Source: a virus
Virus genome (UHGV): UHGV-0280588
Direction: 5' to 3' (one strand)
DNA: 10,694 bases
The number at the start of each line of letters is the position of its first letter. Position 1 is the stretch's first letter. This document shows positions 1 through 10,694 of the stretch, piece after piece. Under the pieces are notes generated by a model. It saw nothing but the letters and a program-made list of their open reading frames with translations, was not told where the DNA came from and did no database searches. The position numbers were made by a program, and so were the translations under genes.

Positions 1-435
1 AGCGACACTGGCTTCCAGCCTGTTACGGGAGGCTATCGCCTCAACAATCGCACCGAGCGTGGTGTCATGCCAGGAGCCTTCCCGGCGGGAATTGAGCGTC
101 CCGCGAAAATCTGCACTCCGGGCGCGGATGGTGACCACATCCGGAGCGCCCCGGTGTTCAACCTCATCAACGGTAAATTTCCCTTTGCATACCAGGGCAA
201 AACCTTTCCAGCCGATATAAACCGTCAGGACAGCGCCACGAACCGGCAGCCCGACCTGCCCGTCGGCATCGTTCAGTTCAATATCAAGCTGGTCAGCCTC
301 AAAGCCCCGGTTATCCGTCAGGGTCATGCTCATCAGACGGTCGCTGATATTGCCGGTAATATCCCTGCTGTCGAGCATCAGCATGTAATCCGGCGTCAGC
401 GTACTGCCTGCATCAAATGTCAGCGCATCCAGCAT
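1..435 (-). CDS. D: Tail protein D (gpD-like), N-terminal part; gene continues past the window start
   Basis: Minus-strand ATG at 435-433 overlaps the U stop (TAATG). Hand translation gives MLDALTFDAGSTLTPDYMLMLDSRDITGNISD..., which matches my recollection of the P2 gpD N-terminus and sits in the expected position after U. Absent from the ORF track, presumably because it has no stop inside the window. Openness of the frame down to base 1 was only checked for the first ~35 codons. Confidence 0.75.
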   Translation of the reverse strand, partial: MLDALTFDAGSTLTPDYMLMLDSRDITGNISDRLMSMTLTDNRGFEADQLDIELNDADGQVGLPVRGAVLTVYIGWKGFALVCKGKFTVDEVEHRGAPDVVTIRARSADFRGTLNSRREGSWHDTTLGAIVEAIASRNRLEASVA

Positions 436-914
436 TATCCCGCCCCCGTCATACCCGTGAATTTAGTCGCCATACTGCCAGCCTTACCGATGAGCGATTC
501 CGCCTGTTTACCGATATCGCCATAAAGCGCGGCCAGTGATTCATCAACGCGGGTGAGCGACAGCGTAAAATCAATTTTCCGGGGGGTGCCGTCTGCAAAG
601 AAAATACTCCCTGTTTCACTCACCTTGCTGATGACATACATGCCGTAAATCATGCCAGTGCCATCCAGCAACGGCCACGCCCGGCCTTCCTCTGCCATCA
701 GCCTGAGCGTGGTCATCGTCAGCTTCCCGCCGGTCAGTTCGGGATAAAGCACGCCGGCAAGCGTCATGTTTTCCTCACCCACACCGAGAAACTGAAAGGC
801 ATCCCGTTTACCGATACGGGAATTTGACGGCCAGCGATAATCTGATTCGCGCTGCATGGTCTGATGTGGCAGCGTCTGGCGCATAAAAACAAACATACCT
901 AACGCGAGCATCAT
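435..914 (-). CDS. U: Tail protein U (gpU-like)
   Basis: 159-aa ORF (MMLALGMFVFMRQTLPHQT...TGMTGAG) immediately downstream of the tape measure gene. GGAGGTG Shine-Dalgarno in the 14-bp gap 915-928. Size and position match P2 gpU. Confidence 0.88.
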   Translation of the reverse strand: MMLALGMFVFMRQTLPHQTMQRESDYRWPSNSRIGKRDAFQFLGVGEENMTLAGVLYPELTGGKLTMTTLRLMAEEGRAWPLLDGTGMIYGMYVISKVSETGSIFFADGTPRKIDFTLSLTRVDESLAALYGDIGKQAESLIGKAGSMATKFTGMTGAG

Positions 915-928
915 TTTTCGTCACCTCC

Positions 929-3376
929 TTAACCGTCATGCATCATGCTGGCACGGGCGCGCACACGTTTATCCCGCTCGTATTTTTCGAGCGCATCCTG
1001 TAACTGGCGGTCAAGCTGTGTCCCCGGCGCAGTACCACCCGTCAGGCTGATGTGATATTCGTTTTTACTCTGGTCCACATAAGAGCGGCCAGCCGGTGCC
1101 GTGACCGGCTGATAAGCCTGATAGCCTGCATAAGAGCTGGTCGCCGGAATATAACCACCGGTGCCATACGTGGCGGCATGAGTTCTGGCGGCGGTCTGGT
1201 CAAGTGTGTCTGACTCTTTGTTGATAACACCGAGTTTTTCCAGTACCCAGTCAATACCGCTGCGCAGTTTGTTGAACGCATTAAGCGGCAGCATCAGCGC
1301 GTCAGCCAGTGCCTGCCCGAACATGACGCCCGTGTCACGGCAACGGTTCAGGGTGTCCTGTGTGGCTTTAACCGGAGCAATCAGGTTTGTAAACCACTGC
1401 CACGCGGCCTGTAACTTTTCGCCCAGCCAGTCAAACACCGGCTTAAGTGGCGTGAACAGCTCCCCCACCGGCGCAAATGCCGCTTTCAGCCCTTCAACCA
1501 CACCGCCAAAGAATGCGCTGACAGGCTCCCAGTATTTACGGATAAGCAACGCCCCGGCGACAATGGCAGCCACCACGGCCACAACCGGCCAGCTAATCGC
1601 ACCGATGGCCGTCATAACGGCACTACCAACCGTCGTGAAGATTGCCCCCATTGCGCCTGCTGCCGCGATAATGGCATTGATGCCGGTGATAACCGGCCAG
1701 GCTACAAGGCCAATGGCACCGATGATGCCAGTCAGCGCCAGTGCACCGCCGGCAATGATGCCGATGGTTGACGCCAGTGATTTGTTTTTCTGTATCCAGC
1801 CGTCGAGTTTTAACACATACTTTGTGGCCGTCTGCGTGAGCTTACGCAGCGCGCCTTCCTGCTGGTCAAACAGGTCAGTCCCCACAGCCTCATAAGCGGA
1901 CTGAAACTCCTTAAAGTCACCGCCGAGGTTATCCTGCATGATTTTAACCAGCTCTTCCGTTTTACTGTCCGAGGCTTTCAGCGTGGCGGTCAGCGTATCC
2001 AGTTTTCCGCTTGCTGCCGCTGCCAGTAAAACGTTCGCTGATTTCAGGGCTTCCTCACCAAAAATGGTTTTAAGGTATTCCCCCTTCTGAGACGTTCCCA
2101 GCTTGTGTTTATCAAAGCTGGCCTGAATCTCTTTCAGAATGGTGAACAACGGACGCATATTTCCCTTTTTGTCCGAGGTTTTAACGCCAAGCTCTTTGAG
2201 TGCATCCCATGCTTTTCCAGTCGGAGCCTGTAATCGGGTGACAACGGCACTACTACCCGTACCCGCCATTGACCCCCTGATGTTATTGTCATGCAGCACA
2301 CCGGTCATGGCTGCTGCCTGCTCAAGACTTACACCTGCCGTTCTTGCGACCGGACCGAGGTAAGTCAGTGCATCACTGAGTCCCTGAAAATCAGCCGCCG
2401 ACTTATTCATCGTTGCCGACAACACGTCGCCCACATGGCTGACATCATCATTTGACAGTTGAAAGGATGCCTTAGTCCCCAGCAACAGTTGCGCGTTTTC
2501 TTCCATCGACCGCTGATTCGCCAGCGCCATATTCAGCGTGACCGGCGTTGCCGCCTGAATGGCATCAACATCCCCACCCGCTTTCGCGATGATTATCTGT
2601 GCACCGGCCGCATCATCCGCCGAGGCGGCGGTATTGTCGCCGAGCTGGCGCGCCTGTTTGCGTAGTGCGGTCATTTCGGCGGAGTCTTTTGCCACTCCGA
2701 GCACGGCCTGCAATTCTGAGTTTTTCTGCGCAAACTCATAACCGGGCATCAGCAACTTAACTCCGGCCATCGTTCCCGCCGCCGCAATCCCCACACCGGC
2801 AGCGCCCACTGAGGCCATATTTCCGGCCAGTTCCTTTCCGGCCTGATAACGCTGTTTTACTGCGTTAAGTTTTGCCTGTTGCGCACTGACACGCGCCAGC
2901 GCGTCACGCTGACGGTTAAGCTGTGCGGTGGTTTCACTGATACGATTTTTCAGTCCCTGCTCATCATGTGCAAGATTGCGGGTATTAATTCCCACAGCGG
3001 CCAGTTCCCGCTGCTGGCGTTTAACGGAATCCGTCAGGCGGTTATATTTCGCCTGTAAGTCCTCCGCCGCACGCTTTGCGGATTCCAGCACTTTCGCCTG
3101 AGCACGGGTCGGACGTTCGGTGTTTTTAAACTGTGTGGCAAGGGCTTCGGCCTCCTGCCGTGCCTTTTCAAGTGCATGACCAGTTACGGCGAGCTGTGCA
3201 CTGGTCTTGCGAAATCCCTCAATACGGGATGCGTGACCGTTCAGCTCGCGCAGTGATTTTTGTGTTTCCCGGATATCCCCCGACAGCGACCTGCTCGCTG
3301 TGCGGATGGATTTAAACGGGCGGGATGCCTGGTCAACAGCCCTGAGCAATACCTGTAATTTTACATTGTTACTCAT
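929..3376 (-). CDS. T: Tail tape measure protein (gpT-like)
   Basis: 815-aa ORF with a coiled-coil-like N-terminal half (many Q/R/A/L/E), a long Gly/Ala/Ile-rich hydrophobic block (IGIIAGGALALTGIIGAIGLVAWPVITGINAIIAAAGAMGAIFTTVGSAV...) and a C-terminal region, typical of tape measure proteins. Lies directly after E/E' as in P2. Confidence 0.92.
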   Translation of the reverse strand: MSNNVKLQVLLRAVDQASRPFKSIRTASRSLSGDIRETQKSLRELNGHASRIEGFRKTSAQLAVTGHALEKARQEAEALATQFKNTERPTRAQAKVLESAKRAAEDLQAKYNRLTDSVKRQQRELAAVGINTRNLAHDEQGLKNRISETTAQLNRQRDALARVSAQQAKLNAVKQRYQAGKELAGNMASVGAAGVGIAAAGTMAGVKLLMPGYEFAQKNSELQAVLGVAKDSAEMTALRKQARQLGDNTAASADDAAGAQIIIAKAGGDVDAIQAATPVTLNMALANQRSMEENAQLLLGTKASFQLSNDDVSHVGDVLSATMNKSAADFQGLSDALTYLGPVARTAGVSLEQAAAMTGVLHDNNIRGSMAGTGSSAVVTRLQAPTGKAWDALKELGVKTSDKKGNMRPLFTILKEIQASFDKHKLGTSQKGEYLKTIFGEEALKSANVLLAAAASGKLDTLTATLKASDSKTEELVKIMQDNLGGDFKEFQSAYEAVGTDLFDQQEGALRKLTQTATKYVLKLDGWIQKNKSLASTIGIIAGGALALTGIIGAIGLVAWPVITGINAIIAAAGAMGAIFTTVGSAVMTAIGAISWPVVAVVAAIVAGALLIRKYWEPVSAFFGGVVEGLKAAFAPVGELFTPLKPVFDWLGEKLQAAWQWFTNLIAPVKATQDTLNRCRDTGVMFGQALADALMLPLNAFNKLRSGIDWVLEKLGVINKESDTLDQTAARTHAATYGTGGYIPATSSYAGYQAYQPVTAPAGRSYVDQSKNEYHISLTGGTAPGTQLDRQLQDALEKYERDKRVRARASMMHDG

Positions 3377-3796
3377 TCGTGTTTCCGCTTCGCCGGAGCG
3401 CCTTTTCGCGCCATGTGATGAGTTCGGTCAGGCTCATGGGATACAGTTCTGATGGCGGCCAGTGAAATATCACTGCCACATCCGCCATCAGGTCATCGAC
3501 CGAGAGATTTTTCGGAAACGTCACTGCACCGAGTTCGGCGACAAAAAACCAACCACCTTACCGGCCAGCGCCACAAGGTCAGGCAGCTCCAGTGCGGCAA
3601 CCTCCTGCTCGGTCAGCATCGGTGCCGTCATGCGCGGCAGCACTTTAATCAGTGCATCGACTTCGGAGTTCGCGACCGCAGCCAGACTGACACCGCGCAG
3701 CGTCCCGGCACTGGGTTTCATCAGCGTGACCTGTTCGATAACCTGCTCACCACGCTTGACCGGATTGTCCAGGGTAATCACATTTTCTTTGTTCAT
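3369..3796 (-). CDS. E': Tail assembly chaperone E+E' made by -1 programmed ribosomal frameshift
   Basis: Slipping -1 at T_TTT_TTG (minus strand, 3548-3542) continues as VAELGAVTFPKNLSVDDLMADVAVIFHWPPSELYPMSLTELITWREKALRRSGNTNE (57 codons) to TAA at 3371-3369, overlapping the tape measure ATG (3376-3374). This is the arrangement reported for P2 E/E' and for lambda G/GT. Confidence 0.78.
3521..3796 (-). CDS. E: Tail assembly chaperone E (gpE-like), frame-0 product
   Basis: 91-aa ORF MNKENVITLDNPVKRGEQVIEQVTLMKPSAGTLRGV...AGKVVGFLSPNSVQ between the tube gene and the tape measure gene; small acidic chaperone in the position of P2 E. Confidence 0.88.
   Translation of the reverse strand: MNKENVITLDNPVKRGEQVIEQVTLMKPSAGTLRGVSLAAVANSEVDALIKVLPRMTAPMLTEQEVAALELPDLVALAGKVVGFLSPNSVQ
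3542..3548 (-). promoter_or_regulatory. Slippery heptamer T_TTT_TTG for the E/E' -1 frameshift
   Basis: Plus strand 3541-3550 is acaaaaaacc, so the minus strand reads GGT TTT TTG in the E frame; the -1 frame is open for 57 codons from here. Confidence 0.75.
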
Positions 3797-3824
3797 GGTT
3801 TTCTCACTTCTGAATCAGGGTTAA

Positions 3825-3845
3825 CCGGTCAGCCTGGCTGACCGG
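3825..3845 (-). promoter_or_regulatory. Intergenic stem-loop between FII and E (possible partial terminator or mRNA stability element)
   Basis: Perfect inverted repeat ccggtcagcc (3825-3834) / ggctgaccgg (3836-3845) in the 56-bp FII-E gap. No U-tract follows on the minus-strand transcript, so it is not a canonical intrinsic terminator. Confidence 0.3.
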
Positions 3846-3852
3846 ATGAAAA

Positions 3853-4371
3853 TCACAGGCCGATATTGCGGCGGTGTTGCTCCAGCCGGTCGACGCCGTT
3901 CACCTTCTCAATCATGTTGATGGTGTCGATTTCGACCAGCTCCTTACCGTCCATCGTCAGCCGGAAATAGGTGCAGACCACGGAGATTTTCGACTCGGTG
4001 TCTTCTCCCTGTTTCCCCTCGCCGGTGTCGATTTCTTTCTGACGTCCACGCATGACCACTTCAACGGCCACCGTTTCGCCGGTATCGTCACGCTGGTAAG
4101 AGCCAGCAAAACGAATCGGCACGGCATCCACACCGGTTGCGGCGTAAAGCTCCCAGATAACCGAATCCGGGAAGCCCCCGAGCGACCACTCCATTGACAG
4201 CGCATCGTCATCAAGGCCGAGGTCTACCGGTGCGCTTCCGTTCATCCCCGCACCGCGATAGTTTTCGAGTTTACGGGTCAGTTTTGGCAGCGTGACGGAC
4301 TTTGCAACGCCCTGATAGCTGTAGCCGTTCAGAAAGACGTTCATTAACTTGAGTTTGCGCGGCATTGCCAT
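3853..4371 (-). CDS. FII: Tail tube protein (gpFII-like)
   Basis: 172-aa ORF MAMPRKLKLMNVFLNGYSYQGVAKSVTLPKLTRKLENYRGAGMNGSAPVDLGLDD... directly downstream of the sheath gene (12-bp gap); matches contractile-tail tube proteins of the P2 FII family. Confidence 0.92.
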   Translation of the reverse strand: MAMPRKLKLMNVFLNGYSYQGVAKSVTLPKLTRKLENYRGAGMNGSAPVDLGLDDDALSMEWSLGGFPDSVIWELYAATGVDAVPIRFAGSYQRDDTGETVAVEVVMRGRQKEIDTGEGKQGEDTESKISVVCTYFRLTMDGKELVEIDTINMIEKVNGVDRLEQHRRNIGL

Positions 4372-4383
4372 CGGTCAGGCTCC

Positions 4384-5574
4384 TTAATTGCTGTTAACCG
4401 AGGTGACCAGATTTGCCAGGTATTTATCGGTAATACGCTGGCGCAGGGTCAGGTTTTCAAGAGGAGGCACCGGAGTATAGTCGTAGTCGATATACAGTTT
4501 TCCGGCCTTAAGGGTTTCCGCATCGTTGGATTCTTCGCTGAACCAGCAGGTCGCATCCACGATATAGCCGTTTGTTTTCAGCTCACGGAATTTGGCATTG
4601 ATGCCGTCAACGATGTCGCGAATCAGCGTTGCGGTGATGGGCTTGTCCACCGCCCACATGTGCGCCTCAGCCATCGTGTCGGCCAGCACCTGCGCGGTGC
4701 GGGTGTAGTTTTCAAAGAGGAACAGCGGGTCATCAGAGCAGGTACGGTTACCCCAGAAGCGGAAACCGTCGCGGCGAATCAGCGTTGTGACGCCTGACTC
4801 GTTAAGCAGGTCAGCATCGGTGCCGGACTCCTGCAAATCCCAGAATACAGAGGCGCTGATGCCGGTAACACCGTTCACCCCGACATTGGACAGCGTTTTA
4901 TGCCAGCCCTGCTCCTGGTCAATTCTGGCTCGCAGACCCAGCGCACGGGCGGTGGCATATGCGGTGGCGGTGGTACTGGTGACCGTATCCCATGCGAGGA
5001 AATCCGGCCAGATGACCATCAGCTCACGCTGGCTGAAATTCTGGCGGTAGGCTTTCACCTCGGAAATGGTCTTACAGCCCCATGCGCTGATATATCCGAA
5101 AGCGCGCAGCTTCTGACAGACTGATGCCAGTGCAACAGCCACCTCTTTGGTATCCAGCCCCGGCACACCAAGAATACGCGGTTTAACACCGGTTACCGAC
5201 TCTGCCGCCAGCAGAGCTTTCAGTCCGGTGTACTGACCATTTTCGTCGGTGGTGCCGATGATATTGGAAACGGTCTGCGCGAGTTTCGTTTCTTCGTCGT
5301 CGCCGGTGCCGTCTTCCACACGCACGACAACGGTGACCGGTTTTGACTGGTCAGCGATGGCCTGCAGCGACGCCGCCAGCGTGCCTTTTTTACCGGCCTT
5401 TGCAATTGCGCTCTGCACATTGGTAATCAGCACCGGTTTATTGAGGGGGAAGATTTCCGCATCCGCATCGCTGGCCGTGCAGACCATGCCGACAATGGCG
5501 GTGGATACGGTGGAAATGACGCGGGTGCCGTCGTTAATCTCCAGCACCTGCACGCCGTGATGATAGTCACTCAT
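4384..5574 (-). CDS. FI: Tail sheath protein (gpFI-like)
   Basis: 396-aa ORF MSDYHHGVQVLEINDGTRVISTVSTAIVGMVCTASDAD...; N-terminus and length match P2-type sheath proteins; followed by tube, E/E', T, U, D in P2 order. Confidence 0.93.
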   Translation of the reverse strand: MSDYHHGVQVLEINDGTRVISTVSTAIVGMVCTASDADAEIFPLNKPVLITNVQSAIAKAGKKGTLAASLQAIADQSKPVTVVVRVEDGTGDDEETKLAQTVSNIIGTTDENGQYTGLKALLAAESVTGVKPRILGVPGLDTKEVAVALASVCQKLRAFGYISAWGCKTISEVKAYRQNFSQRELMVIWPDFLAWDTVTSTTATAYATARALGLRARIDQEQGWHKTLSNVGVNGVTGISASVFWDLQESGTDADLLNESGVTTLIRRDGFRFWGNRTCSDDPLFLFENYTRTAQVLADTMAEAHMWAVDKPITATLIRDIVDGINAKFRELKTNGYIVDATCWFSEESNDAETLKAGKLYIDYDYTPVPPLENLTLRQRITDKYLANLVTSVNSN

Positions 5575-5633
5575 CCGTTTAACTCCGTGGTTAATGGGTG
5601 AGTGGTATTTTCAGTTGTGCCGGAGATGTCAGG

Positions 5634-6227
5634 CTATTTGTCCCGGTTGGCTAAGGGATGACACAATTTATTCTTTGTCGCTGATGAGGGGAATTTTTTA
5701 TAGAGCGTGGACAGGCCAATATCAAAAATCAGCGCCACACGTTGACGAGATTCCCCCGCAGCCAGCAACCGTCCGACCTGCTCCCACTCACTCGCGGTGA
5801 GTTTCGGACGTCTGCCACCAATACGGCCTTTGGCTCTGGCCGCTTCCAGTCCGGCGCGTGTCCGCTCGACAATGAGTTCTCGTTCCATTTCAGCCAGGGC
5901 ACCCATCACATGAAAGAAAAAACGCCCCATCGGCGTGCTGGTATCAATAGCATCCGTCAGGCTGCGAAAATTAATGCCGCGTTCGCGCAGTTCCTCAACC
6001 AGAATGACCAGATGCCGCATACTACGCCCCAGCCTGTCCAGCTTCCAGACCACCAGAGTGTCACCTGCTGATAATGTTCTGAGCAGTTTTTTCAGTCCCG
6101 GTCGGTCGGACTTCGTGCCGCTGATTTTATCCTCAAAAATCAGCTCACATCCTGCGCACTCCAGCGCGTTACGCTGCAATTCCGTGTTCTGGTCATTTGT
6201 TGACACGCGTACATAGCCAATAAGCAT
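5634..6227 (-). CDS. pin: Serine DNA invertase, Gin/Pin/Hin/Cin family
   Basis: Translation MLIGYVRVSTNDQNTELQRNALECAGCELIFEDKISGTKSDRPGLKKLLRTLSAGDTLVVWKLDRLGRSMRHLVILVEELRERGINFRSLTDAIDTSTPMGRFFFHVMGALAEMERELIVERTRAGLEAARAKGRIGGRRPKL... carries the catalytic YVRVST serine motif and is near-identical in pattern to Gin/Pin as I recall them. Start set at the second ATG (6227-6225), which aligns with the MLIGYVRV start of homologues and has AGGGGGA well spaced upstream; the track's start at 6233 adds two residues. Confidence 0.92.
   Translation of the reverse strand: MLIGYVRVSTNDQNTELQRNALECAGCELIFEDKISGTKSDRPGLKKLLRTLSAGDTLVVWKLDRLGRSMRHLVILVEELRERGINFRSLTDAIDTSTPMGRFFFHVMGALAEMERELIVERTRAGLEAARAKGRIGGRRPKLTASEWEQVGRLLAAGESRQRVALIFDIGLSTLYKKFPSSATKNKLCHPLANRDK
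6120..6144. promoter_or_regulatory. Candidate recombinational enhancer / Fis-binding palindrome inside the 5' part of pin
   Basis: gctgatttt (6120-6128) and aaaatcagc (6136-6144) are exact reverse complements around a 7-bp spacer, with G...C ends and an AT-rich centre like Fis sites. It lies about 85-105 bp into the invertase gene, where Hin/Gin/Cin enhancers are located. Confidence 0.3.
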
Positions 6228-6282
6228 GAGCATCCCCCTGAATAAAAACCGGAGATGATGCCACTTGCCCGTTATCTATGCA

Positions 6283-6308
6283 TTTTCATAAACGTTGGTT
6301 TGGGAGAA
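6283..6308. promoter_or_regulatory. Invertase crossover site (gix/hix-like, pin-proximal)
   Basis: TTTTCATAAACG TT GGTTTGGGAGAA, a 12+2+12 site closely resembling hixL (TTCTTGAAAACC AA GGTTTTTGATAA as recalled). The inner half-site plus 9 further bases (6295-6315, ttggtttgggagaagccagat) recur in inverted orientation at 7731-7751. Confidence 0.72.
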
Positions 6309-6989
6309 GCCAGATTCTCTGGTCGTTTGTTAAACACGAATATTTTTAAAAGCTCTGGAAAATATATCCCAACACCAGGGACAAAAAAGATAAGGGTCAT
6401 TGCCTCTGGTGGCGGTGGCGGCGGCGGTGGGGTTCCTGAAACAACAGAAAATCAGCAGGCAACAGCCGGAGCTGGATTGAGCGGCGCATTTATTGAAGCA
6501 TTTTTCGAGGTTGATAATGATTTCGAAGTCAACGTTATTATCGGTGCTGCAGGTAAAGGTGGGGGAGCCGGAAGAAATTCAGGTAGTGAAGGTGGCACAA
6601 CTTATTTCGGTTCCATGATAACTGCACCTGGTGGTACAGGCGGTGGCGCGGGGGGAGCATCTGCAAACACATCATATATTCAGGGTATTTCATGGGGTGC
6701 CAGTCCGACATCGTCCGGTACTGTACTAAGAGCATTTCGCTGTAGTGCAAAAACACCAGGAGCAATGGTTATCTCTGTTAAAGCTGTAGCAGGTGGTACC
6801 GGGGGGGATACACCATTAGGTTCAGGCGGTATAGGTGGTGCAAGTTCTTCATCATTCAGCGGACGTGGTGGTGGTAAAGCTGAGGGCTTTGGTGCTGGCG
6901 GAGGCGGAGCCTGCGCACCTGCTGGAAGTGAGGCTCAATCGGGAGGTGACGGTGCCCCGGGAATAGTTATTGTTGAGGAGTATGCCTGA
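6297..6989 (+). CDS. Silent alternative tail-fibre C-terminal cassette, glycine-rich (230 aa), expressed only after inversion
   Basis: Plus-strand frame GLGEARFSGRLLNTNIFKSSGKYIPTPGTKKIRVIASGGGGGGGGVPE...GAPGIVIVEEYA shares the crossover-encoded GLGEAR with the H constant part in the same codon phase (junction codon xTT at both sites). Part of track ORF 6255-6989, whose ATG lies outside the segment. Confidence 0.72.
   Translation, partial: GLGEARFSGRLLNTNIFKSSGKYIPTPGTKKIRVIASGGGGGGGGVPETTENQQATAGAGLSGAFIEAFFEVDNDFEVNVIIGAAGKGGGAGRNSGSEGGTTYFGSMITAPGGTGGGAGGASANTSYIQGISWGASPTSSGTVLRAFRCSAKTPGAMVISVKAVAGGTGGDTPLGSGGIGGASSSSFSGRGGGKAEGFGAGGGGACAPAGSEAQSGGDGAPGIVIVEEYA
6408..6431 (+). repeat. 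(GGY)8 trinucleotide run encoding Gly8
   Basis: GGT GGC GGT GGC GGC GGC GGT GGG read directly from the sequence, inside the glycine-rich cassette. Confidence 0.9.
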
Positions 6990-7255
6990 TGAGTAATTTT
7001 GCTCTGATTGAACATGGCGTGGTGAAAAATATTATTATCTGGGATGGAGAGGGGGATTTATTCTCTAATTGCGAAATTATAAATATTGATCATATAGATG
7101 CAGGCGTCGGTTGGTTCTATTCTGACGGAGAGTTTATAGCACCACCGGAACCGGAAATGACTGAATATGATGTTGGTAATATCGACGCGGTGATGGAAGC
7201 AGATACCAGCACCGCGCCGGGGGTTATCTGGCCAGTTCCACCTGAGATGGTTTAA
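6989..7255 (+). CDS. Putative short tail-fibre assembly/chaperone protein for the glycine-rich cassette
   Basis: 88-aa ORF whose ATG overlaps the cassette stop (ATGA). C-terminus ...DTSTAPGVIWPVPPEMV resembles the conserved C-terminal motif of lambda Tfa as I recall it (...RVDTSTAPDIEWPAVPVME). Much shorter than typical Tfa/gpG/U proteins (about 175-195 aa). Confidence 0.5.
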   Translation: MSNFALIEHGVVKNIIIWDGEGDLFSNCEIINIDHIDAGVGWFYSDGEFIAPPEPEMTEYDVGNIDAVMEADTSTAPGVIWPVPPEMV

Positions 7256-7511
7256 TCTCAATCAGAATGGGTTCGCCCTTCTCGTTAACAGATATTTCCA
7301 TTCCTTCAGGGATTTCAGATGCAGTAAAAAACCAGTTATCTTCTGGTAATTCCACAGCCCCGGTCACGTCATGAAGACCGGGGATTACTTCAGTCAAAGT
7401 AACAGGATTAAACAGGCGCACAATAAACTCTCCAGGAAAAAGCACTTGTTGATGGTCTTCCGTCGTACATCTGGCAGCGGACATAAAAACCTGTATTACT
7501 GACCTGGTCAT
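7224..7511 (-). CDS. Uncertain small ORF, possibly a tail-fibre assembly/chaperone protein for the current fibre variant; start not resolved
   Basis: 95-aa frame MTRSVIQVFMSAARCTTEDHQQVLFPGEFIVRLFNPVTLTEVIPGLHDVTGAVELPEDNWFFTASEIPEGMEISVNEKGEPILIEIKPSQVELAR. It overlaps the 3' end of H (stop at 7408-7410) in another frame; the ATG starts at 7511 and 7484 overlap by 104 and 77 nt, and in-frame GTG codons at 7445 and 7421 would give shorter overlaps. Its 3' end overlaps the plus-strand ORF by 32 bp. Confidence 0.35.
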   Translation of the reverse strand: MTRSVIQVFMSAARCTTEDHQQVLFPGEFIVRLFNPVTLTEVIPGLHDVTGAVELPEDNWFFTASEIPEGMEISVNEKGEPILIEIKPSQVELAR

Positions 7512-8799
7512 CCACGATCATTGAAACGTGAACGTTATTAGGTGTGGCCTCGTAATCTGTTCTTATTCTTTCCGCTATGCTGATAAAACGTGAAAGTTTA
7601 GGTAGTGCAATTGGATAAACGACTTTAGCCAGCCCATTATCATTGGAACCACCAGTTCCAAATACTTCTATTGCACCATCTGACCAGCGTATCCATGCAC
7701 CATTGACATTAGCTCCTCGCTGAATGACATATCTGGCTTCTCCCAAACCAAGGTATGCGAGAAGACCAGCAACATCCTTTCCACTCAAATTAGTCAGCGT
7801 ATTGTCCAGCGGTTGTTTGCCTGCCAGTGCATTAAGCACTGTTGTTGAAAAGTTAGGGTCATTCCCCAGCGCCGCCGCCAGTTCATTCAGTGTATCCAGT
7901 GCCGCAGGGGCAGAACCCACCATTGCCGCAATTGCTGATTTCACAAAAGCCGTGGTAGCAATCTGTGTATTGTTGACCGACTGTGCCGCCGTAGGTGCTG
8001 TTGGCGTTCCGGTAAGTGCGGGACTCGACAGCGGCGCTTTCAGCGCCAGCGTATTGTTAATGGTGGTACTGAATTTCGGGTCATTATTAATGGCTGCGGC
8101 AATTTCTTTCAGTGTGTCCAGCGTGGCTGGCGCACCGTTAATCAGAGCAGTAATAGCAGCCTGTACAAACGCAGTGGTCGCAATCCGCGTGGTGTTATTT
8201 CCTGCGGCAGGCGTCGGCGCTTTTGGTTCTCCGGTAAATGTCGGATTATGTTTCTGTGCATACTGGGTATGAGGATCCTGTGCGGCAATGTGGTTTCTCA
8301 TCTGGTCATCCACATAAAGCTTTAATTCCAGGACTTCATCATCCACGTATTTACGGGTCGCCAGTACCACCGACGGGTCGATTTTCAGCGTGATGGCTTC
8401 GGTATTCGTGACAACCAGAATCATGCGGATAGTCTGGGTACGACCGCTGCCTTCCTGCAACTGCGGTTTGTACGTTTCCGGGCAGTTCGCCACCGCAATG
8501 AGTACGCCTTCATCATCATAAAGCCCAATCTCACGGATCCAGAATCCGCCCTCGTTCTCAGGGATGATTTGCTCCGCAATAATCTGGCTCTGGTTGTTCG
8601 GGTCAACACTCAGAAGATTCAGCGGCGCAATGCGTTTCTGGTTAATCAGTTTTGTCTGTGCCGGGTCTGGTGTCGGCAAGACACCATTCGCATCACCAAC
8701 GGCCATTTGCGTCAGATTCAGCTTACTGCCGAGCATCGTCGCGTTAGCCAGCCGTGCTGCGCCCTGATTAGTCAGAATGGCGTAGTATTTCACTGTCAT
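7408..8799 (-). CDS. H: Tail fibre protein (gpH-like), current orientation: constant part 8799-7752, variable C-terminus 7749-7408
   Basis: 463-aa ORF; N-terminal domain MTVKYYAILTNQGAARL...MAVGD...GGFWIREIGLYDDEGVLIAVAN...YVDD is the conserved baseplate-attachment domain of P2 H / Mu S / P1 S type fibres, followed by two shaft repeats, then LGLGEAR at the crossover site and a 107-aa variable tail. ATG overlaps the gpI stop. Confidence 0.9.
   Translation of the reverse strand: MTVKYYAILTNQGAARLANATMLGSKLNLTQMAVGDANGVLPTPDPAQTKLINQKRIAPLNLLSVDPNNQSQIIAEQIIPENEGGFWIREIGLYDDEGVLIAVANCPETYKPQLQEGSGRTQTIRMILVVTNTEAITLKIDPSVVLATRKYVDDEVLELKLYVDDQMRNHIAAQDPHTQYAQKHNPTFTGEPKAPTPAAGNNTTRIATTAFVQAAITALINGAPATLDTLKEIAAAINNDPKFSTTINNTLALKAPLSSPALTGTPTAPTAAQSVNNTQIATTAFVKSAIAAMVGSAPAALDTLNELAAALGNDPNFSTTVLNALAGKQPLDNTLTNLSGKDVAGLLAYLGLGEARYVIQRGANVNGAWIRWSDGAIEVFGTGGSNDNGLAKVVYPIALPKLSRFISIAERIRTDYEATPNNVHVSMIVDDQVSNTGFYVRCQMYDGRPSTSAFSWRVYCAPV
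7738..7763. promoter_or_regulatory. Invertase crossover site (gix/hix-like, fibre-proximal), inside the H coding sequence
   Basis: TTCTCCCAAACC AA GGTATGCGAGAA on the plus strand; inner half-site identical to the reverse complement of the inner half of the 6283-6308 site, and the central dinucleotides (AA here, TT there) are complementary as inverted repeats require. Encodes LGLGEA of the fibre. Confidence 0.72.
7806..8244 (-). repeat. Diverged tandem duplication (2 units of about 219 bp, about 73 aa) in the tail-fibre shaft
   Basis: Protein repeats PTFTGEPKAPTPAAGNNTTRIATTAFVQAAITALINGAPATLDTLKEIAAAINNDPKFSTTINNTLALKA and PALTGTPTAPTAAQSVNNTQIATTAFVKSAIAAMVGSAPAALDTLNELAAALGNDPNFSTTVLNALAGKQ; also visible in the antisense plus-strand ORF 7724-8272. 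Boundaries are approximate. Confidence 0.7.
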
Positions 8800-9407
8800 G
8801 CGTTTACTCTCAGGTTATCAATTAAATGAATGGCCGAGGCCGGGAAATAATCCCCTCCGACAATAATGGCCTCCGGGGTGTAGGGATAAACCGTCAGGGC
8901 GTCACCGTGATAGCATCCCGCACCGGCAAAAATGTTGCCGGTTGTACTTAAACTGATAGCCAGTCCCGTCAGATGGCGGCTTGCCGGTTTGGCATCAGCA
9001 ACGAGGCGCTCCAGCTCCTGATACATTTCCTCGGTAATACCCTGCTCAAGCACGCCGACAACGATACGGAACGTCCCCGGCTCCTCGTTGAGCTGCCACC
9101 ACTCCCTCACCTCAATCAGATAGCCGAGTGGCTCCACCACACGGCGAATCGCACCAATAGTGCCCTTATGGCAGTGAATGAAATACGCATCGCGGATAAC
9201 AGCGCGTTTTGTCGCTTCCGGCCACTTATCATCCCAGCGGTCAACCGAAAATGACCACGCCAGCCACGGCAGCAGATTTGCCGGGCAGGTGTCCGGGTTC
9301 CACAGCTCACGAATACTGACCGGCGTTTTTTCAATTTCCGCACAGGCTTTTGCGGCGGCGACTTCAAGCGGTGATGAGCCAGTCGGCAGCAGTCGCGAAT
9401 CACTCAT
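8796..9407 (-). CDS. I: Baseplate assembly protein I (gpI-like)
   Basis: 203-aa ORF MSDSRLLPTGSSPLEVAAAKACAEIEKTPVSIRELWNPDTCPANLLPWLAWSF... between J and H; 3' end overlaps the H start. Confidence 0.85.
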   Translation of the reverse strand: MSDSRLLPTGSSPLEVAAAKACAEIEKTPVSIRELWNPDTCPANLLPWLAWSFSVDRWDDKWPEATKRAVIRDAYFIHCHKGTIGAIRRVVEPLGYLIEVREWWQLNEEPGTFRIVVGVLEQGITEEMYQELERLVADAKPASRHLTGLAISLSTTGNIFAGAGCYHGDALTVYPYTPEAIIVGGDYFPASAIHLIDNLRVNA

Positions 9408-10308
9408 CCGAGCCTCCGGTCACGACGCTGTATTCGGTGCAGAAAGACGCCTGCATACTGTTGAGCACGATGTCAGCCAGCGGTGCAGCCAGTTCGACAC
9501 GCTGCACGCCTTCCACATGCAAAGCGGCATAAATGGCAGACAGACGGATGTCGCGCCCCAGCCGGTGCTGTGCCGTGATGTACGCTTCCAGTTTTTTCAC
9601 GGCGGCGGCGCGGATGGGTTCGCTTTCGGGACCAGGGTAAAGGTAAAGCGTGGCGTTTATCTGGTATTCAACAATGGCGGCAGACTGCACGGTCACGCGG
9701 TCGGCCACCGGCCTGACGTCCTCGCCATTAAGGGCGTTACGCACCACGGCCAGCAGGTCTTCGGATGCGACACCGTTATTTTCACGTGACAGCACAGAGA
9801 TGGTGACGCAGGCCGGAGACGGACTGGTGACAGAAATATCCGCGACACGCCCGTCAGCACTGCGACCATGATACTGATAGGCTCCCACCGACCCGGCGAC
9901 GCTTAAGCCCTCAAACGCCTGCTGAATACGCAGACGATAATCGGTGTCAGACTCCATCACTGCCGGTGTCGGCGGGATAGTCGAATCATCTGCCGGGGTG
10001 ATAGTCAGGCGCGTGGTGTTGTAATTGGCACCAATCACATCAAGGTCATTACCGGCAGCACAGGCCAGCATTACCGCCCGTGCGGCCTCATTCACACGCT
10101 GACGCCAGATAAGCTCGCGATAAGCATTTTCCTCCAGCAGTTTGACGAGAGGCTCGGATTCCAGCGTCAGGGTACGGGCGACCGCCTCCTGCTGGTCTTC
10201 CGGGTAAAGGGAAATCAGTGTCGCCTTGCGTTCGGCAAGAATGGTTTCAAAGTCCAGCTCCTCGACCACATCCGGTGCAGGTAGCTGGTTCAGGTCGATA
10301 ATCGGCAT
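9400..10308 (-). CDS. J: Baseplate assembly protein J (gpJ-like)
   Basis: 302-aa ORF MPIIDLNQLPAPDVVEELDFETILAERKATLISLYPEDQQEAVARTLTLESEPLVKLLEENAYRELIWRQRVNEAARAV...; size and position between W and I match P2 gpJ. Overlaps the gpI start by 8 nt. Confidence 0.9.
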   Translation of the reverse strand: MPIIDLNQLPAPDVVEELDFETILAERKATLISLYPEDQQEAVARTLTLESEPLVKLLEENAYRELIWRQRVNEAARAVMLACAAGNDLDVIGANYNTTRLTITPADDSTIPPTPAVMESDTDYRLRIQQAFEGLSVAGSVGAYQYHGRSADGRVADISVTSPSPACVTISVLSRENNGVASEDLLAVVRNALNGEDVRPVADRVTVQSAAIVEYQINATLYLYPGPESEPIRAAAVKKLEAYITAQHRLGRDIRLSAIYAALHVEGVQRVELAAPLADIVLNSMQASFCTEYSVVTGGSDE

Positions 10309-10312
10309 GGTT

Positions 10313-10660
10313 TCAACTCACAGGGATGGTTAACGAAAGTGGCTGGCCGGTGTCGTTGTGCTGGCCGGTTAACGTAACTGTCATTCGCCCGTCAAAACTG
10401 CGCGCCGTGGTGACGGATGACAGGGTGACGCGGGGTTCCCATTTCAGCACTGCCATGTAACAGGCAACCTTAATCTGCAACTCAAGCGCCGGGGTCTGCG
10501 GCTGGTCAATCATTGACGCCAGCAACGAGCCGTAATCACGACGCATCACCCGTGAGCCGACCGGTGTGCGCAGGATATCGCCGATACTCTGGCTGATATG
10601 CTCAAGGTCAGTGACAATCAGGCCATCACTGCGATTCATTCCGAGATAACGCGCTGTCAT
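10313..10660 (-). CDS. W: Baseplate protein W (gpW-like)
   Basis: 115-aa ORF MTARYLGMNRSDGLIVTDLEHISQSIGDILRTPVGSRVMRRDYGSLLASMIDQPQTPALELQIKVACYMAVLKWEPRVTL...; small baseplate protein directly upstream of J. Confidence 0.88.
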   Translation of the reverse strand: MTARYLGMNRSDGLIVTDLEHISQSIGDILRTPVGSRVMRRDYGSLLASMIDQPQTPALELQIKVACYMAVLKWEPRVTLSSVTTARSFDGRMTVTLTGQHNDTGQPLSLTIPVS

Positions 10661-10694
10661 AGAGGACTCCCGGTTGTGCCGCCGCTGTCGCCGG
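10657..10694 (-). CDS. V: 3' end of baseplate protein V (gpV-like) gene; rest lies beyond the window end
   Basis: An open minus-strand frame enters from the window edge (...GDSGGTTGSPL) and stops at TGA 10659-10657, overlapping the W start as ATGA, with GGGAG as W's Shine-Dalgarno. Only 12 codons are visible, so identity rests on position alone. Confidence 0.45.
   Translation of the reverse strand, partial: GDSGGTTGSPL

Follow-up and report, generated by a model that had tools for sequence, protein, structure and literature searches.

Does the tail-fibre gene of a P2-like virus, with a DNA invertase on one side and one of two inverted repeats in its coding sequence, offer the virus a choice of fibre tips? 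The question is raised by UHGV virus genome UHGV-0280588, a stretch of 10,694 nucleotides (nt; the whole stretch is referred to below as the window), in which a first-pass annotation made from the letters alone had described a Pin-type inversion switch in gene H, which encodes the tail fibre. The answer is very probably yes: a Pin/Gin-type site-specific inversion switch gives a P2-like Escherichia coli prophage two alternative tail-fibre tips. Invertase dimers would bind two inverted 26-bp sites and, by analogy with Hin and Gin, join the host protein Fis at an enhancer located in the initial ~90 bp of the invertase gene itself. Both sites would be cut at a central TT with a 2-bp stagger and one pair of half-sites would rotate through 180 degrees. 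By inversion, the 350-amino-acid (aa) shaft of H would receive either a 113-aa tip, as at present (463 aa in total), or a 230-aa glycine-rich tip (580 aa). Each tip would bring its own small downstream open reading frame (ORF; 65 or 88 aa) into the late V-operon transcript, and a population of lysogens would release virions of two receptor specificities, a form of host-range bet-hedging.

The two recombination sites are well defined. The invertase-proximal site, of the pix/hix/gix type, lies at 6283-6308 and reads TTTTCATAAACG TT GGTTTGGGAGAA, with its crossover dinucleotide at 6295-6296; the distal site (7738-7763), which is inverted and located within H, reads TTCTCGCATACC TT GGTTTGGGAGAA on the minus strand and has its crossover at 7750-7751 (AA on the plus strand). 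Each is made up of two 12-bp half-sites of the TTNTCNNAAACC type flanking a 2-bp core, and the pair has the features of the invertase family: 26 bp, imperfect palindromy, inverted orientation and a matching TT core. A search of the 10.7-kb window with the consensus TTNTCNNAAACCNNGGTTTNNGANAA, allowing up to three mismatches, gave two matches, each with a single mismatch, where 0.01 would be expected by chance, and two matches were found in none of 200 shuffled sequences. The sole long inverted repeat reported by a repeat finder in 5000-9000 has 33-nt arms at 6283-6315 and 7731-7763 that are 85% complementary. The first-pass annotation had placed two hix/gix-like sites at exactly these positions and had given them a perfect 21-bp core. 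The sites and the 21 bp of perfect identity stand, but the word core does not: the identity (6295-6315 and 7731-7751) begins at the central TT and extends 7 bp past the 26-bp site on the segment side, and is thus off-centre, which is the only correction that the earlier description needs. A third site, as in a shufflon, was considered and rejected, as the scan of the window gives two sites only, corresponding to a simple two-state switch. The proximal site is identical to the pinE-proximal site of e14. Of 79 viral loci that encode related invertases, nearly all have a site that starts 81 bp before the invertase ATG, with the inverted partner ~1.5-3.5 kb beyond it, and the arrangement corresponds to that of the classical invertasome. 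The same architecture of site, invertase and segment is kept in about 60 related loci.

Between the sites lies the invertible segment (6297-7749; 1455 bp between crossover centres, or ~1.46 kb). In its present form, H (7408-8799, minus strand) encodes 463 aa, of which residues 1-350 (7750-8799, minus strand) are constant and lie outside the segment, and the remaining 113 form tip A (7408-7749, minus strand), which is currently on. The constant part falls in tail-fibre families of Pfam and PHROG; its N-terminus matches the Pfam Phage_tail_fib (tail-collar fibre) domain (3e-62), and H is 51% identical to P2 H at the aa level over residues 26-332. Tip B, the glycine-rich alternative, is encoded on the plus strand at 6297-6989, within an ORF spanning 6255-6989, and is currently off. 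The crossover TT provides positions 2 and 3 of a CTT codon (Leu350) in H and of a GTT codon (Val) in the silent ORF, the right half-site GGTTTGGGAGAA is read in frame as G-L-G-E, and the motif GLGEAR, which begins at H residue 351, occurs in the same phase at both ends of the segment. Since the cut falls inside codon 350 and GLGEAR is in the same phase at both ends, inversion swaps the tips in frame: when 6295-7751 was inverted in silico, codon 350 remained CTT and an open H of 580 aa with the 230-aa tip was obtained. The frame analysis thus bears out three points made at first reading, namely that the crossover dinucleotide lies inside a fibre codon, that GLGEAR is encoded in one phase at both ends, and that the 350-aa constant part can be followed by either 113 or 230 aa; both forms of H are annotated in natural genomes. 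The locus has the layout known from fibre switches, with the crossover within the fibre ORF, a constant N-terminus and alternative C-termini in frame.

The two tips differ in the protein families that they resemble. Tip A resembles the Gp53-like_C family weakly (E 0.006, below the Pfam cut-off), and tip B matches Gly_rich_2 in Pfam (1e-7) and the C-terminus of the PHROG 6202 tail fibre (4e-56). The invertase gene and the site are separated by a 55-bp spacer, in which an in-frame ATG (6255) precedes the silent arm; the arm is annotated in RefSeq as a free-standing 244-aa 'glycine-rich domain-containing protein'. A scan of 5500-8900 for promoters and terminators yielded nothing above chance (5 promoter-like sites, versus 4.1 expected), with no promoter-like signal before the silent arm or for the invertase, a result that carries no weight for or against the expression of these two; the fibre is presumably expressed from the upstream late promoter.

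The prediction that the locus should be phase-variable is borne out, by proxy, in public genomes. Complete E. coli genomes contain further copies of the 1.46-kb segment at ≥99% identity, and the copy in the window is 99.8% identical to a segment that is inverted between UC4224 and its derivative UC4316, on the one hand, and UC4315, on the other. In UC4224 and UC4316, the glycine-rich arm is fused to H, which is annotated as a 580-aa 'phage tail protein', whereas UC4315 has the orientation of the window and a 463-aa H. UC4224 and UC4315 show 100% identity in the 3 kb that flank the segment to the left and to the right and, once one copy is reversed, in the 1429 bp between the sites; the inversion is precise at the sites, and the tip of UC4224 and tip B of the window are identical at 229 of 230 residues. 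Lambda-Red recombineering of another, unrelated locus in UC4224 gave rise to UC4315 (PMC13340028), and the inversion therefore arose within a few laboratory passages. Further cases are found in other genomes. ECE228 and UC4316 have identical invertase and H flanks and opposite orientations, and a fused 580-aa H is annotated in VCSW8. The viral contigs L006 and L011, the invertases of which are 99% identical to that of the window at the aa level, carry one 1817-bp segment in opposite orientations. Among 26 IMG/VR contigs containing tip A, the tip is on (fused to a long upstream ORF) in 17 and off, beside the invertase, in 8.

'Inner-only' BLAST matches in E. coli genomes are not all inverted copies, as some of them, those in A15 and Res13-Sevr-PER07-33, show the orientation of the window with different flanks; individually verified cases are therefore reported here, with no ratio. 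An exact-pattern scan for the junction core followed by the start of either tip found no match in species-representative genomes; in IMG/VR, it found 26 contigs with one match each, all of them to tip A, such that the tip pairing of the window was not recovered.

The same cases bear on how the segment is inverted. With 21 bp, the homology available to RecA does not exceed the length usually needed as a minimum for efficient recombination. It is extremely improbable that RecA-dependent homologous recombination across the 21-bp inverted identity, rather than site-specific exchange, inverts the segment, even though a perfect repeat of this length is present and the exchange point can be placed only at the TT or somewhere to its right. 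In dozens of loci, the repeats fall on consensus invertase sites whose distance from the invertase gene is constant, and the single base that differs within the sites of the isogenic pair UC4224/UC4315 lies immediately 5' of the core TT, where half-sites exchange, as expected for exchange at the core.

The enzyme for such an exchange is encoded next to the segment. The gene at 5634-6227 (minus strand) encodes a serine DNA invertase of the Pin/Gin family, with 197 aa from MLIGYVRVST, as judged from Pfam, PHROG and an alignment with Gin. Pfam recognizes a Resolvase domain (residues 5-137, 4e-52) and an HTH_7 domain (residues 140-183, 5e-13), and the protein matches PHROG 125 'DNA invertase' at 1e-101. 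The size and layout are those of small serine recombinases (~185-200 aa, with an N-terminal catalytic domain and a C-terminal helix-turn-helix). Its kinship with characterized invertases is full-length and sets it apart from the resolvases: it aligns residue for residue with crystallized Mu Gin (3UJ3) over residues 1-182 with an E-value of 7.5e-94, against 3e-32 for gamma-delta resolvase. At the aa level, it is 87% identical to PinE of e14, 85% identical to the UC4224 prophage invertase and 77% identical to Mu Gin. With the ORF intact, the end-to-end alignment with Gin and the resemblance to PinE confirm that a Gin/Pin-family invertase adjoins the segment, as the first-pass annotation had it. 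The nucleophile S9 lies in MLIGYVRVSTNDQ (a YxRVST motif) and aligns with S9 of Gin. The roles of S9 and M114 have been described, and the Gin substitution M114V results in Fis independence (PMC3575834). Invertases activated by Fis and an enhancer have specific basic residues in helix B (Hin 47, 48 and 51), together with Q151, R154 and L155 in the DNA-binding domain (PMC3798978, Johnson laboratory). The invertase of the window retains S9, M114, K46, K47, R50, Q150, R153 and L154 (Hin numbering is one higher), and so has the aligned residues associated with Fis/enhancer activation.

The 3' end of the invertase gene is unusual. Homology to P2 (94%) begins at 5654, inside the gene, and this graft junction creates a C-terminal extension relative to PinE, of ~13 residues. 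The 3' end reads into the region of the P2 late promoter pF (5634-5672; also 5575-5654), such that the invertase gene overlaps the FI-operon promoter, and the last 11 invertase codons (KLCHPLANRDK plus the stop) align with the annotated activator-binding site of P2 and the DNA just downstream. A frozen relic, with recognizable sites and invertase in a copy that no longer inverts, for example because the extended enzyme is inactive or unexpressed, would fit with this read-through into pF, with the ~13 extra residues and with the failure of the promoter scan to find a promoter-like site for the invertase. It is nevertheless very unlikely, given that the invertase ORF is intact with its catalytic and regulatory residues kept, that both sites are one mismatch from the consensus and that both fibre frames are open; in addition, L006 and L011, with their 99% identical invertases ending in the same C-terminus, carry one segment in both orientations.

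A putative Fis-dependent recombinational enhancer can be proposed at 6143-6206 (minus strand), in the 5' coding part of the invertase gene. Two candidate 15-bp Fis cores with G and C ends occupy nt 22-36 and 71-85 of the gene (6206-6192 and 6157-6143 of the window); their placement, modelled on the hin, gin, cin and pin enhancers, is tentative. Across 75 unique invertase genes, the G/C ends (nt 22, 36, 71 and 85) do not vary, nt 36, a synonymous third codon position, included; codons 9-12 show almost no variation in their third positions, and synonymous codon entropy is minimal in codons 1-30. The proximal candidate core is ~97 bp from the centre of the site; a comparable distance, ~100 bp, separates hixL from the Hin enhancer, which is located within the 5' part of its recombinase gene (PMC3798978). 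Both the sequence constraint and the geometry fit an overlapping enhancer, short of proving one, and from the membership of the invertase in this family we infer that the switch depends on Fis and an enhancer.

Each tip is followed by a small ORF within the segment. The ORF just downstream of tip A (7224-7421, minus strand) has a GTG start, encodes 65 aa and occupies the position of a fibre-assembly gene. It matches PHROG 5400 (3e-22), a family of unassigned function with a profile length of 145, of which it covers positions 1-66 only; its RefSeq counterpart is WP_001236016.1, and it is intact at ~83% nt identity in L045, L062 and L069. The ORF downstream of tip B (6989-7255, plus strand) encodes 88 aa and belongs to PHROG 14370; its likeness to a 202-aa Tfa (pairwise E 3e-8) is confined to a C-terminal motif typical of tail-fibre assembly proteins, ID-AV---DTSTAP-IIWPV-PE. 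Neither ORF matches any Pfam family, Caudo_TAP included. The two ORFs converge and overlap by 32 nt. From its motif, the 88-aa product is probably a miniature tail-fibre assembly protein, and the two products together may be miniature or truncated chaperones. Gene G of P2 is not simply absent, as short ORFs of the segment take its place. One arm of a 21-nt inverted repeat (5925-5945 and 7202-7222, 81% complementary) falls in the invertase gene and the other in the 88-aa ORF. Each arm codes for D-T-S-T, as part of IDTSTP in the former and of DTSTAP in the latter, where it belongs to the Tfa-like motif; the resemblance is probably a coincidence.

The switch has been inserted into a tail module that otherwise follows P2 closely. 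In blastn comparisons, positions 1-5654 of the window correspond to P2 17572-23225 at 94.5% identity (the pF promoter, FI, FII, E, T, U and part of D), and 8971-10694 to P2 10906-12629 at 94.3% (W, J and the 5' part of I); the ORFs of the window map one-to-one to P2 FI, FII, E, T, U and D and to W, J and I, as is expected of a P2-like tail module. The 3.3 kb in between have no match to P2 beyond a 216-nt patch at 73%. This non-P2 graft (5655-8970) comprises the invertase, the invertible segment, a different H and the 3' end of I, and replaces the 3' end of I, H, G and fun(Z) of P2. In reference P2, the order at this locus is H, G, a terminator, fun(Z) and then FI, and reference P2 has neither an invertase nor a hix-like site matching the consensus. 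It had been claimed that classical P2 has gene G here and no such switch, and that the switch had been grafted into a P2-type module; both claims agree with this alignment, in which P2 homology stops at 5654/5655 and resumes at 8970/8971. The G+C content of the segment is 47%, versus 56-58% for the P2 backbone.

The segment is not tied to this backbone. The same cassette (≥99% identity) is found behind the 350-aa H constant part in the window and in the P2-like prophages of UC4224, ECE228 and VCSW8, and behind a 285-aa constant part in A15 and EC23-1020. The presence of one cassette behind three kinds of constant part, the third of which is described below, suggests that the segment travels horizontally as a unit. 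It has long been held that fibre modules are exchanged at conserved junctions, and movement of the whole segment is consistent with this view. In A15 (L085), the cassette resides in a P2-like prophage with the shorter H constant part and an H of 398 aa, and in Res13-Sevr-PER07-33 (L088, NZ_CP062811) it lies behind a ~97-aa constant part in an e14/Mu-like element (YmfQ, baseplate J), beside umuDC-like genes. The flanks of the cassette in these two genomes are unrelated or only distantly related to those of the window. In EC23-1020 (L086, NZ_CP168214; locus ~1500-1700), the glycine-rich arm is fused to H and contains a stop codon (NIF*SSGKY) 17 codons past the junction; because of this nonsense codon, H is annotated as a pseudogene in RefSeq.

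Several observations count against an active host-range switch in the window. Inversion was assessed by proxy, in public genomes; the invertase of the UC4224 segment, which has demonstrably flipped, is only 85% identical to that of the window at the aa level, and a segment can also be acted on in trans by further Pin-type invertases of the same genome (PMC12529663). The glycine-rich arm can decay, as the stop codon in EC23-1020 demonstrates. With a simple Fis-motif score, only the distal candidate core reaches the threshold and the proximal core is weak, and low synonymous variation spans approximately the first 115 codons, much of the first two thirds of the gene, which is wider than the enhancer. 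The 65-aa ORF displayed no similarity to full-length Tfa on comparison, and a difference in host range between the two tips is a prediction. Set against these points are the sites, the invertase, the frame logic and the precise inversion of a near-identical segment in one laboratory lineage, all of which are seen in the sequences.

The switch could also be real and yet have been selected for a benefit to the host, with fibre proteins or fragments blocking the adsorption of other phages, or with a tailocin whose killing spectrum is switched. The sites of the window have the e14 core TTGGTTTGGGAGAAG, and a 2025 paper reports that PinQ, acting in trans, inverts the e14 P segment and thereby creates a chimeric fibre protein, StfE2, that inhibits T2 adsorption (PMC12529663). 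The silent arm, with its own ATG in the ORF at 6255-6989 and its free-standing annotation in RefSeq, could be seen in the same light, and the completeness of the prophage is not demonstrable from the window alone. As the main selected role, such a benefit is nonetheless improbable: the surrounding tail module is an intact P2 gene set at 94% identity, the N-terminal collar and shaft domain of H is complete, the silent arm is preceded by no promoter-like signal above chance, and host-range switching is what the classical members of the family do. One locus could serve both roles, and with an intact P2 tail module, host-range switching is the most economical explanation.

Host-range switching by inversion is well documented in several systems, of which the Pin/P system (pinE) of e14 in E. 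coli K-12 is the nearest relative. The invertases are 87% identical and the proximal 26-bp sites are the same, the distal site of the window has the e14 right half and the TT core, and the layout is shared: a fibre constant part, a site, two convergent tip and accessory cassettes, a second site and the invertase. The e14 P segment has been shown experimentally to be invertible (PMC4272514, PMC12529663). The two loci differ in the element that carries them, e14 being defective and the window having the tail module of a P2-like myovirus, in which the constant part of H is 350 aa long; in the length of the segment (1797 bp in e14, 1455 bp in the window); in their tips, which in the window are weakly gp53-like and Gly_rich_2; and in their accessory genes, which encode TfaP (137 aa) and TfaE (200 aa) in e14 (stfP-tfaP/stfE-tfaE) but 65 and 88 aa in the window. 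Mu is somewhat further away. Its Gin is 77% identical to the invertase over the full length, with S9 and M114 conserved, and Mu too has 26-bp sites with a 2-bp core and a crossover in the fibre ORF that joins a constant N-terminus to alternative C-termini. However, the G segment (S/U, S'/U') is ~3 kb long and has full-length U/U' assembly genes (~175 aa), and the gix core and half-sites read TTATCCAAAACC TC GGTTTACAGGAA, whereas the core in the window is TT. The comparison with Mu G and e14 P that the first-pass annotation had proposed thus places e14 closest. The flagellar switch Hin/hix of Salmonella has a recombinase of the same subfamily, 26-bp sites, Fis/enhancer contact residues that are conserved in the invertase of the window (PMC3798978) and an enhancer inside the recombinase gene at a comparable distance from the proximal site (~100 bp, versus ~97 bp for the candidate). 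Hin flips a promoter together with its own gene, whereas the invertase of the window lies outside the segment and a 3' coding region is exchanged.

Comparable loci are also known from P2-like phages. The P2-like prophages of enteropathogenic E. coli (EPEC) E2348/69 and invertase-bearing Peduoviridae have the same type of backbone, with an invertase and alternative fibre cassettes between H and FI (the Z/fun hotspot), and in two of these EPEC prophages, sequencing and PCR have shown that both orientations coexist (Goldberg et al. 2014, PMC4272514). One of the EPEC loci has three repeats and is shufflon-like, whereas the window has two sites. A preprint on P2-like hotspots also describes invertases and adjacent inversions at the Z/fun locus. 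In all, 81 phage records match part of 5600-8800, the best of them covering the invertase and the H constant part, with other segment contents; S164, pro483, the 'P2' of O157:H43 T22, Cartapus and Klebsiella phages cover 46-55% of this region in this way. Related loci with an invertase and two sites are common among IMG/VR viral contigs. The switch is therefore not unusual for P2-like phages, being common in sequenced Peduoviridae and prophages, and its kind is textbook (Mu G, P1 C, e14 P, p15B Min); the mechanism, its occurrence in P2-like prophages and phase variation are all already established. Only the cargo is mildly new, with the shortest segment among the 60 loci compared and ORFs of 65 and 88 aa in place of full-length assembly genes. 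A broader proposal can be built on this cargo. The window would hold the most compact Pin-type host-range cassette to date, in which a 113-aa weakly gp53-like tip and a 230-aa Gly_rich_2 tip are matured by miniature proteins of 65 and 88 aa in place of Tfa/gpG chaperones of ~140-200 aa, the segment being mobile between unrelated backbones (P2-like with different H shafts, and e14/Mu-like), with StfE2-like anti-phage receptor masking by the lysogen as a further possibility. Taken as a whole, this proposal is speculative and rather unlikely to hold.

The value of the locus lies mainly in correct annotation and in an added cassette, and it opens no new question. In RefSeq, the pieces of the switch are labelled 'phage tail protein', 'hypothetical protein' and 'glycine-rich domain-containing protein', and the length given for H of the same prophage (463 or 580 aa) varies with the orientation of the segment when it was sequenced; recognition of the switch removes this apparent difference between strains. 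The window also contributes one more pair of tips to the catalogue of exchangeable P2-like receptor-binding modules, which are useful for engineering host range or tailocins. In the P2-like backbone itself, a 152-aa ORF at 67-525 on the plus strand, opposite the homologues of P2 D and U, is very likely spurious, since the minus strand of this region matches P2 D and U at 94% identity.

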